Positions 29,735 through 30,080 of a DNA stretch of 64,000 bases are shown one piece after another. Each line of letters begins with the position of its first letter. Position 1 is the first letter of the stretch. The stretch spans positions 4,678-68,677 of the forward strand of contig CAMDAB010000004.1 in the NCBI GenBank assembly GCA_945888475.1, in the 5' to 3' direction. Made by a program: the position numbers and the translations under genes. The notes under the pieces are model-generated. The model was not told the origin of the DNA. It searched no databases and saw only the letters and a list, made by a program, of their open reading frames with translations. The DNA comes from Saprospira grandis DSM 2844 (GTDB lineage Bacteria > Bacteroidota > Bacteroidia > Chitinophagales > Saprospiraceae).

Positions 29735-30080
29735 ATGAGAAGTCATCAGACGGCAGATATCAAATTTTCAGCTATTTAACTTTTAGCTTTTCTATAATAA
29801 CCTATCTTAGTTTTCTAATTCTAATTTCAGATTTCATCTCGTCCGAAAGACGAGACTAACTTCAGATTTCTAACTTCTGATTTCTAACTTCTAATTTCTA
29901 ACTTCTGATTTCTAACTTCAGATTTCTAACTTCAGATTTCAGATTTCATACTTCTAATTTCATACTTCTAACTTCTGATTTCTTCCCGATAGCTATCGGG
30001 ATTCTAACTTCAGATTTCTAACTTCAGATTTCAGATTTCTAACTTCTAACTTCTAACTTCATACTTCTAACTTAAAATAT
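29735..30080. repeat. Mosaic intergenic element, site 6: hairpin CTCGTC-cgaaa-GACGAG, about 20 TTC-NNNN heptamers (TTCTAAC/TTCAGAT/TTCTGAT/TTCATAC), palindrome CCCGATAGCTATCGGG, and about 12 more heptamers
   Basis: Hairpin at about 29838-29854; palindrome at 29985-30000. Confidence 0.8.

Follow-up and report, generated by a model that had tools for sequence, protein, structure and literature searches.

The spacer between an aminotransferase gene (28586-29734) and prfB (30081-31164), at 29735-30080 of a 64-kb window of bacterial DNA (the whole stretch analysed, from a contig of an ENA metagenome assembly), is a mosaic of tandem heptamers and two short palindromic modules, P and H. From the aminotransferase stop codon the order is approximately 100 nt, an H copy, 18 heptamers, a P copy, 10 heptamers and the prfB ATG. 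The H copy, located by pattern match at 29837-29855, reads TCTCGTC-CGAAA-GACGAGA, i.e. a 7-bp stem around a 5-nt loop, which is predicted to form a DNA hairpin of -6.7 kcal/mol (z -3.3); the aminotransferase stop codon lies 103 nt upstream, and a short run of TTCTAAT/TTCAGAT-type units read from the sequence (29811-29836, + strand) precedes it. Tandem Repeats Finder and unit parsing resolve the following array (29856-29983, + strand) into 18 TTCTAAC/TTCAGAT/TTCTGAT/TTCTAAT/TTCATAC units and a partial unit, within the 15-20 that had been estimated in the first-pass annotation of this DNA, and a second array (30002-30071, + strand) into 10 units that end 9 nt before the prfB ATG (30081). Between the two, P (29984-30001) matches TCCCGATAGCTATCGGGA, a perfect 18-nt palindrome (hairpin z -4.7) with TTCT on either side. 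prfB itself contains the classic programmed +1 frameshift site (AGGGAGG..CTTTGAC near 30127-30143), hence the open reading frame (ORF) list holds only its downstream frame, from 30235. Throughout, the analysis covers the 64-kb window and short contigs from relatives. It describes a genuine and well-supported repeat system of a known kind, hypervariable short-unit arrays with miniature dispersed hairpins, of which the members and the host phylum appear to be undescribed so far.

These modules and a third, R, had been proposed to form a dispersed mosaic intergenic family at eleven or more sites of the window, and such a family is indeed present, in all gene-orientation contexts. The P 12-mer CGATAGCTATCG occurs in seven exact copies (8000, 13579, 24840, 25026, 28374, 29987 and 46917) compared with 0.12 expected from shuffled sequence, the H pattern CTCGTC-N(3-8)-GACGAG six times compared with 0 expected, and the 22-nt R five times at up to three mismatches (four copies on the + strand and one on the -, in line with the two orientations proposed), again compared with 0 expected; every copy of the three falls within the 12% of the window that is intergenic. 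Of the eleven listed sites, eight carry canonical modules, whereas 31165-31285 and 40363-40644 hold arrays only and an H-like variant is all that the site near 48290 contains. The CTCGTC/GACGAG stem of H is as first described, but its loop, given as 4-7 nt, is 5 nt in all six copies. P and H form stable predicted DNA hairpins (z -3.3 to -5.7), and R, with z 0, folds like shuffled sequence.

Six of the seven P copies are perfect palindromes of 18-20 nt around the core CCGATAGCTATCGG, most often in the full form TCCCGATAGCTATCGGGA; the seventh (7997-8011) is degenerate, its right arm decayed. The outer bases of P go with the family of the surrounding array: CC..GG in GATGAAAG arrays, AT..AT in TTGAAAAT arrays and TC..GA in TTCTAAC and TTGATAC arrays. 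The copy at 13576-13593 (CC..GG) sits in a GATGAAAG octamer array with GATGA on both flanks, the copy at 46914-46931 (AT..AT) in a TTGAAAAT octamer array upstream of a TPMT-like gene, and at 28363-28388 a half copy, CCCGATAG, precedes a full P (CC..GG) in a GGTGAAAG octamer array. Two copies lie in the spacer 24817-25071 between tandem clpP paralogues (24100-24816 and 25072-25782, 78% nucleotide identity, followed by clpX), which is itself a mosaic element. One of them, AATCCGATAGCTATCGGATT (24836-24855), is part of an approximately 55-nt unit with TTGAAAAT-type flanks that aligns with 46885-46960 and with a metagenomic contig from elsewhere (L275). The other (25023-25040, TC..GA) belongs to a TTCTAAC-type array; the clpP2 ATG follows 31 nt later, and the flanks of this P are like those of the copy at 29984 (repeat family D4). 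The clpP spacer and the prfB spacer share the order H, heptamers, P, heptamers, as had been noticed at first reading, and are 83% identical over 128 nt.

The full form of H, TCTCGTC-N5-GACGAGA, is found in five of the six copies and is often followed by CTAAC. Besides the prfB copy and one in the clpP spacer (24918-24936, loop TGCAA), there are two pairs of direct repeats on the + strand: identical copies at 8026-8044 and 8095-8113 (loop TGAAT; repeat family D9), 69 nt apart from start to start around a degenerate tandem R-like sequence (8063-8084), and copies at 38912-38930 and 38962-38979 (loop CGAAA), 50 nt apart around four CTTCTAC heptamers. The variant TCTCGTAAAAATGACGAGA occupies 22337-22355, with an inverted R (22367-22388) 11 nt further on, and the H-like TCTCGTT-ATTCT-AACGAGA at 48287-48305 has a compensatory C-G to T-A change in the stem. 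Two exact, unfolded R copies (13959-13980 and 13993-14014, + strand) each lie between TTGAT and TTGATAC of a TTGATAC array, and an ACTCCG variant of R (28508-28529, + strand) lies between CTGAT and CTGATAC of a CTGATAC array.

Most modules, as Tandem Repeats Finder shows, are surrounded by 7- or 8-nt arrays; the first-pass annotation had placed every module in one, and the degenerate P at 7997-8011 and the H at 8026 lie outside. The units had also been described as specific to each locus, which does not hold, since the same families recur at two to five loci each: TTCGTTA at 13679 and 22407, GTCTAAT at 13640, 22546 and 28440, TTGATAC at 13945 and 28495, TTCTAAC-type units at 24896 and 29856, and GATGAAAG and TTGAAAAT octamers at five loci. 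Several loci have three to five different arrays each. Those at 13618-13958 (+ strand; families D12, D14 and D16) combine GTCTAAT, TTCGTTA and CTGATGT heptamers and include an 87-nt higher-order repeat, and a convergent spacer holds (TTCGTTA)x19 followed by GTCTTAT-type heptamers (22407-22620, + strand); the gene that adjoins this longest array (22625-23899) encodes a PIF1-family helicase. CAGATTTT and TCTGACT/TCTGATA arrays without P, H or R lie upstream of a fabG-like gene (31166-31280, + strand). Sense-strand octamers form the leader ATTTTCAA / CTTTCATC immediately 5' of the fmt ATG (8114-8159, + strand) and the arrays (ATTTTCAA, ATTCCCTC and similar) 5' of the ATG of an ahpC-like gene (40364-40489, - strand). 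In heptamer arrays the T-rich strand is the + strand of the window at all eight loci, whatever the direction of the flanking genes. All arrays fall within 7.8-47 kb; from 48.3 to 64 kb there are none, and here the GC skew becomes positive and genes of island-like character (BRO-N, RhuM, Uma2) are found. Where modules interrupt arrays, unit fragments of 2-5 nt flank them (TTCT|P|TTCT, GATGA|P|GATGA, TTGAT|R|TTGAT and CTGAT|R|CTGAT), and copies of a module have one or two flanking units in common, which fits co-copying of a module with its neighbouring units between unit-sharing arrays, by ectopic recombination or template switching.

The window is assigned, on the evidence of its proteins, to a freshwater Saprospiraceae (Bacteroidota) genome, and is neither cyanobacterial nor enterobacterial. 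The best matches of the aminotransferase, at 92% identity, are in freshwater 'Saprospira sp.' metagenome-assembled genomes (MAGs), the next matches being Saprospiraceae and Aureispira, with approximately 65% identity to the Aureispira and Saprospira grandis proteins. Proteins of the window carry type IX secretion system (T9SS) sorting domains and one has a GldM domain; the 50 ORFs scanned against Pfam are ordinary housekeeping genes, including rpe, fmt, a mevalonate-pathway gene, fab genes, holA, two clpP genes, lpxD and prfB. A cyanobacterial identity, of the Nostoc type with short tandemly repeated repetitive (STRR) sequences and small dispersed repeats (SDRs), was rejected: the flanking proteins have their matches in Saprospiraceae, and no match to P, H or R is present among PLSDB plasmids.

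Comparison with a contig from a sister sample (L279), which has 98.4% nucleotide identity over the coding DNA from clpP2 to lpxD, shows how quickly these spacers change. A single TTCAGAC unit and a single base of the H loop (TGTAA in L279) account for all the difference in the clpP1-clpP2 spacer, whose P at 25023 is conserved. The convergent spacer at 22316-22624 keeps its left 85 nt, with the H variant and the inverted R, save for one base of the H variant, whereas its (TTCGTTA)x19 and GTCTTAT arrays are replaced in L279 by quite different sequence with TTGGTAA units and a new P in a TTGATAC array. The array upstream of lpxD, which in the window holds P and its half copy, consists in L279 of ten GATGAAAG-type octamers without interruption. 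At the R of 28223-28585, the corresponding stretch of L279 (6097-6459) has the 3' part of R (the rare ACTCCG variant), then an inverted 5' part, then H, and the two strains are thus polymorphic for an inversion within R: GCGCTT-CG-CGGAACTCCGTTTC in the window, CGGAACTCCGTTT-A-AAGCGC followed by an H copy in L279. Meanwhile, the parts of these spacers that lie outside arrays are conserved.

In three further relatives with 92-95% protein identity (L002, L082 and L083), arrays are present in the matching spacers with other unit numbers and partly other unit types, and neither P nor R is found in the spacers compared. The H at 29837-29855 is also present at the orthologous place before prfB in L083 (93% amino-acid identity), but the array at 29856-29983 is different or missing in the relatives' orthologous spacers and the P at 29984-30001 is not in those of L083, L082 or L002. 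Likewise, the R at 28508-28529 is not in L082 or L083, and L083 has a second H (loop ATACA) in an octamer array where the window has P. These comparisons show that arrays gain and lose single units, that they are replaced wholesale between near-identical strains, and that modules come and go independently of their surroundings. Relatives' contigs often break within arrays. An independent assembly from another sample (L284) nevertheless reproduces two arrays base for base, the H-pair region at 38912-38979 and the array at 40364-40489 being identical there, and such agreement between independent assemblies indicates that the arrays are not an assembly artefact.

Beyond the window and its closest relatives, H followed by CTAAC was found four times in Joint Genome Institute (JGI) metagenome contigs, and three of the matches are low-GC contigs (L274, L275 and L277) in which H stands at the 5' end of TTCTAAC-type arrays, at loci unrelated to those of the window, with the stem unchanged and the loops CTAAA, CGACA and CAAAA. 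L275 has a full mosaic upstream of an unrelated gene, in the order GATGAAAG octamers, TTGAAAAT octamers, P, H, heptamers and ATG, and its approximately 55-nt unit around P is the one that aligns with two window loci. P is more widely dispersed. Its 14-nt core gave 101 non-redundant matches, mostly in IMG/VR, and in 63 of these the palindrome continues for 2 bp or more to either side, compared with approximately 6 expected; TCCCGATAGCTATCGGGA is the form of 57 of 76 extended copies, in 54 distinct flank contexts, and the outer two base pairs change only symmetrically (TC..GA, CC..GG, AT..AT or TT..AA). The modules are therefore not peculiar to the window. P is found in other tandem arrays, at the apex of larger hairpins that include terminator-like stems, within a larger repeat, and half-duplicated or nested, the tandem half-copy form being that of the window copy at 28363-28388. 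A 6-9-nt tandem array lies within 40 nt of P in 19% of contexts compared with 3% of random positions in the same loci. In contrast to P, the 80 H matches in IMG/VR have random composition and no surrounding arrays and the four R matches there lie in unrelated coding-like sequence, both at chance level. P was found in one of 80 other Saprospiraceae or Bacteroidota loci, which points to a lineage-specific expansion; searches with P gave partial chance matches only among cultured phages (INPHARED) and an unrelated primer match only in the literature, where a search for Saprospira repeats found no paper.

The carriers of P include a Flavobacterium prophage, with a terminase 93% identical to that of Flavobacterium sp. 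Sd200, and Mu-like phages (Portal_Mu, Gp36) with terminase relatives in Bacteroidales, Prevotellaceae and Dysgonamonadaceae MAGs. In prophage contigs of the Flavobacterium type (L126, L127, L153, L164 and L186), P is fixed within a repeat of approximately 60 nt, several copies per contig, that reads GTGTAGCTG.TTCCCCTCT..GAGAG-P-GGGGTG or, in the opposite orientation, CCTCACCCC-P-CTCTCC..GGAGAGG. In the IMG/VR phage contigs L185 (2579-3571), L148 and L184, P lies approximately 29 nt from a reverse-transcriptase ORF (phrog_1423, RVT_1), which may belong to a diversity-generating retroelement. The only genes that recur beside P in carrier contigs are phage structural genes and reverse transcriptase, the latter tally covering five P-carrier contigs and one chance-match contig, and no nuclease or transposase beside P is common to the carriers.

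Several arrays are placed where they could enter transcripts. Bacteroidota-type -7 boxes (TAnnTTTG) lie upstream of the arrays at the aminotransferase gene (-264) and the TPMT-like gene (-189), so that arrays, P and R would there fall in long 5' untranslated regions (UTRs); at lpxD the box lies between array and gene, and the array would thus be upstream of the promoter and outside the transcript. H is located approximately 100 nt past the stop codon in three co-directional gene pairs, and two modules, the P at 25023 and the H variant at 22337-22355 (- strand), fit a simple terminator pattern. A scan of the window for sigma-70 promoters and terminators gave counts at shuffle level, and no element matched Rfam at either the gathering or a permissive threshold. 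The sequence context weakly suggests that many arrays are transcribed as leaders or intercistronic spacers and so could affect expression. The only Rfam matches in the window are a cobalamin riboswitch and a small SRP RNA gene, at 35511-35640 (+) and 55417-55515 (-), the riboswitch lying upstream of a protein with a T9SS sorting tail.

The explanation favoured here, with moderate confidence, is that these spacers are slippage-prone 7- and 8-nt arrays that host miniature dispersed hairpins resembling repetitive extragenic palindromic (REP) sequences and SDRs, non-coding and selfish sequences that are copied and pasted by host processes or mobilised in trans and have incidental effects on mRNA. 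Arrays would lengthen and shorten by slipped-strand mispairing. P, H and R would be non-autonomous 'copy-and-paste' sequences of the REP or small-dispersed-repeat kind, spreading together with a few flanking units when unit-sharing arrays recombine ectopically or a template is switched between them. P would also cross lineages, carried by Mu-like Bacteroidota phages and perhaps assisted by a trans-acting enzyme; its exact conservation across Bacteroidota classes and phages suggests that local copying is insufficient and that horizontal movement or an activity in trans is needed. Arrays in 5' leaders and intercistronic spacers would probably change mRNA length and hairpin content, either as a side effect or as an acquired function. 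A number of points weigh against this explanation. Its copying steps are all inferred, and the genome was sampled over only about 64 kb. Among the 50 window ORFs scanned against Pfam there is no transposase, REP-associated tyrosine transposase (RAYT), integrase or Y1-HUH enzyme, and no consistent target-site duplication was found at 63 P copies, flush flanking duplications of at least 3 nt being present at eight of them (3-5 nt, mostly inside arrays). The near-perfect conservation of P across Bacteroidota classes could reflect a conserved binding protein. Selection rather than pure selfishness is suggested by the array that precedes the aminotransferase ATG, which is still made of TTGATAC-type units in relatives of 93-98% identity, by octamer arrays that always present CTTTCATC / ATTTTCAA on the sense strand directly 5' of the start codon (one + gene and four - genes), and by a 29-nt composite found without change at 8123-8151 (+) and at 46881-46909 (-), before two genes of opposite orientation.

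The last two observations also speak for a functional cis-acting RNA, in which pyrimidine-rich arrays would serve as unstructured leaders or spacers (binding, for example, ribosomal protein S1, in a phylum that makes weak use of Shine-Dalgarno sequences), P and H as stabilising, processing or attenuating hairpins, and unit number as a means of tuning expression. The -7 boxes upstream of two arrays, the position of H after three stop codons, the two terminator-like matches and the translational role proposed for TAACTGA repeats (PMC4679880) are all consistent with such a role. However, heptamer arrays keep one chromosomal orientation and are accordingly purine-rich in some transcripts, the lpxD array would lie outside its transcript, Rfam has no match, and the swapping, loss and gain of arrays and modules between strains 98.4% identical are hard to square with a required function, so that an RNA role, the main rival, is regarded as a tentative possibility. 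Were P instead an operator, bound by a dimeric DNA-binding protein that is conserved (a site of a regulon or of the nucleoid) and spread by selection for binding, its perfect dyad over 18 nt, its symmetrically varying outer positions and the distance of 30-80 nt that separates four of the seven copies in the window from a downstream ATG would be accounted for. The resemblance to a protein site, part of the original description, stands as far as the dyad goes and is weakened by half-copy tandem duplications, nested copies and P at the tips of larger hairpins, among them phage terminator stems; furthermore, real operators are degenerate while P is near-identical across Bacteroidota classes, P is present or absent upstream of one housekeeping gene between near-identical strains, and the neighbouring genes are functionally unrelated. 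An operator is therefore considered very unlikely.

Mobilisation by a specific enzyme can be envisaged in two ways. P and H could be true REP sequences, or the doublets known as REPINs, whose single-stranded DNA hairpins are moved by a RAYT-like transposase of the Y1 (HUH) type whose gene lies in another part of the genome or on phages. They are hairpin-forming, intergenic, abundant and lineage-specific, no target duplication is seen at them, as is expected of IS200/IS605-type insertion, which makes none, and P lies within other palindromes and hairpin tips, as do some REPs (PMC3733652). Yet the unpaired GTAG/CGTC head is absent, the CGTC of H being inside its stem, P lacks the mismatches and bulges typical of REPs, P copies are single rather than organised as inverted doublets, and no Y1 transposase is present among the window ORFs scanned; this origin is judged unlikely. 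More speculatively, a dedicated enzyme system (a hairpin-targeting HUH or other nuclease, or a 'repeat writer' of the reverse-transcriptase or primase type) could write and move arrays and modules alike and be common to Cyanobacteria, Beggiatoaceae and filamentous Bacteroidota through horizontal transfer, with Mu-like phages as vectors of P. On this view heptamer arrays would all point one way along the chromosome because the system acts on one replication strand, a quite improbable scheme. Finally, the elements might be fragments of one known insertion sequence (IS) or miniature inverted-repeat transposable element (MITE), or an artefact of assembling repetitive metagenome reads, as contig breaks in arrays and the H copies at 8026 and 8095 that bracket an 87-nt unit might hint. 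Against this, the L284 arrays and the L279 clpP spacer are reproduced in independent assemblies of other samples, and the modules measure 18-22 nt, their flanks are unrelated, the palindrome itself is the only terminal inverted repeat and target duplications are inconsistent; none of P, H and R is matched in PLSDB nor P in INPHARED, and no IS-related ORF occurs among the 50 scanned, making this explanation scarcely credible.

Three other features of the window lie apart from the modules. A 95-nt direct repeat (38366-38460 and 38711-38805, 98% identical, 345 nt apart) spans a small ORF at 38369-38794. The gene at 56680-59163 encodes an 827-aa protein with eukaryote-type major vault protein domains (MVP_shoulder, Vault_3), i.e. 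a bacterial vault-protein homologue. At 59324-61182, three tandem Uma2 (DUF820) nuclease-like genes form a duplication with a period of 622 bp and 71-93% identity. The Uma2 family is greatly expanded in cyanobacteria, which also carry heptamer arrays, a parallel that may be fortuitous or may point to a cognate enzyme.

Variable arrays with embedded modules have consequences for further work. Strains that are 1.6% apart already differ in single units, whole arrays and modules, and long reads from populations could therefore catch events as they occur. The exact 18-nt P is common to Saprospiraceae, a Flavobacterium prophage and Mu-like Bacteroidota phages, some hosts of which may be culturable and tractable. 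In practical terms, the arrays break metagenome assemblies at gene boundaries and are possible strain markers.

Among known systems, the elements were first likened to the bacterial interspersed mosaic elements (BIMEs) built from REP sequences in E. coli. With these, and with the REPIN-RAYT system of Pseudomonas, they share short intergenic hairpin repeats in high copy, mosaic organisation, strain-variable abundance and, for some REPs, insertion in palindromes, but the likeness is one of analogy only. In the window, variable tandem 7- and 8-nt arrays, which BIMEs do not have, separate the modules, palindromic units do not alternate, R forms no hairpin and no RAYT is encoded among the 50 ORFs scanned. 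A REP or REPIN is defined as an imperfect palindrome with an unpaired GTAG/CGTC, whereas P is perfect and untagged and the CGTC of H belongs to a 7-bp stem. CGTC-tagged REPs are known from five phyla including Bacteroidetes, with 8-9-bp stems, 4-5-nt loops and no dedicated transposase (Di Nocera et al. 2013, PMC3733652). H resembles them in containing CGTC, and differs in that the CGTC is paired and that neither a CCA tail nor head-to-head dimers are present. Definitions of MITEs and IS elements (terminal inverted repeats, a fixed duplication and a length of approximately 70-300 bp or more) do not describe modules of 18-22 nt. In Neisseria, small unrelated repeats, namely inverted pairs of the DNA uptake sequence (DUS), dRS3 and Correia elements, are interleaved intergenically, and the inverted pairs form terminator-like hairpins. 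Unlike a DUS, the P half-site is never found alone as an independent unit within the window and nothing ties P to competence, and Correia elements far exceed P, H and R in size.

The arrays themselves are closer to the intergenic TAACTGA-type heptamer arrays described in Beggiatoaceae, Cyanobacteria and five Bacteroidetes (MacGregor 2015, PMC4679880), which often lie just upstream of start codons, differ between strains by 7 nt, mix heptamer types, are replaced in close relatives by shorter, repeat-free spacers and in one case have a common chromosomal orientation. Here too the units are intergenic and 7 nt long, one unit separates the window from L279, arrays differ in relatives of 92-95% identity, and CTGATAA, CTGATAC and CTGATGT are rotations or near-relatives of TAACTGA. 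However, the window has longer arrays, of up to 19-28 units, in which P, H and R are embedded, and PMC4679880 mentions neither embedded palindromes or hairpin modules nor Saprospiraceae.

By architecture, the system is best viewed as a Bacteroidota counterpart of the cyanobacterial STRR heptamer arrays with their SDR elements. Those arrays, the subject of work by Elhai et al. in 2008, reportedly host SDRs of approximately 20-27 nt (SDR1-8), some of them hairpin-forming and some self-nested, which are said to be non-coding, to occur in many contexts and to have expanded in restricted lineages. Passages of papers citing that work describe SDRs as small mobile repeats present only in Nostocaceae. 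P, H and R share with SDRs their setting in 7- and 8-nt arrays, the half and nested copies of P, the many contexts of P (54) and, approximately, their size of 18-22 nt. They differ in their Saprospiraceae host, in having no match in PLSDB, which includes cyanobacterial plasmids (with the host, the basis of a provisional separation from SDR1-8), in a P that is a perfect palindrome common with Bacteroidota phages, and in the additional 8-nt, gene-oriented leader arrays. Heptamer arrays with tiny embedded repeats have been known in cyanobacteria since the 1990s-2000s, and finding this architecture again in another, unrelated phylum, where the sequences that compose it are also unrelated, argues for a general property of replication or repair, or for a transferable enzyme, rather than a cyanobacterial quirk.

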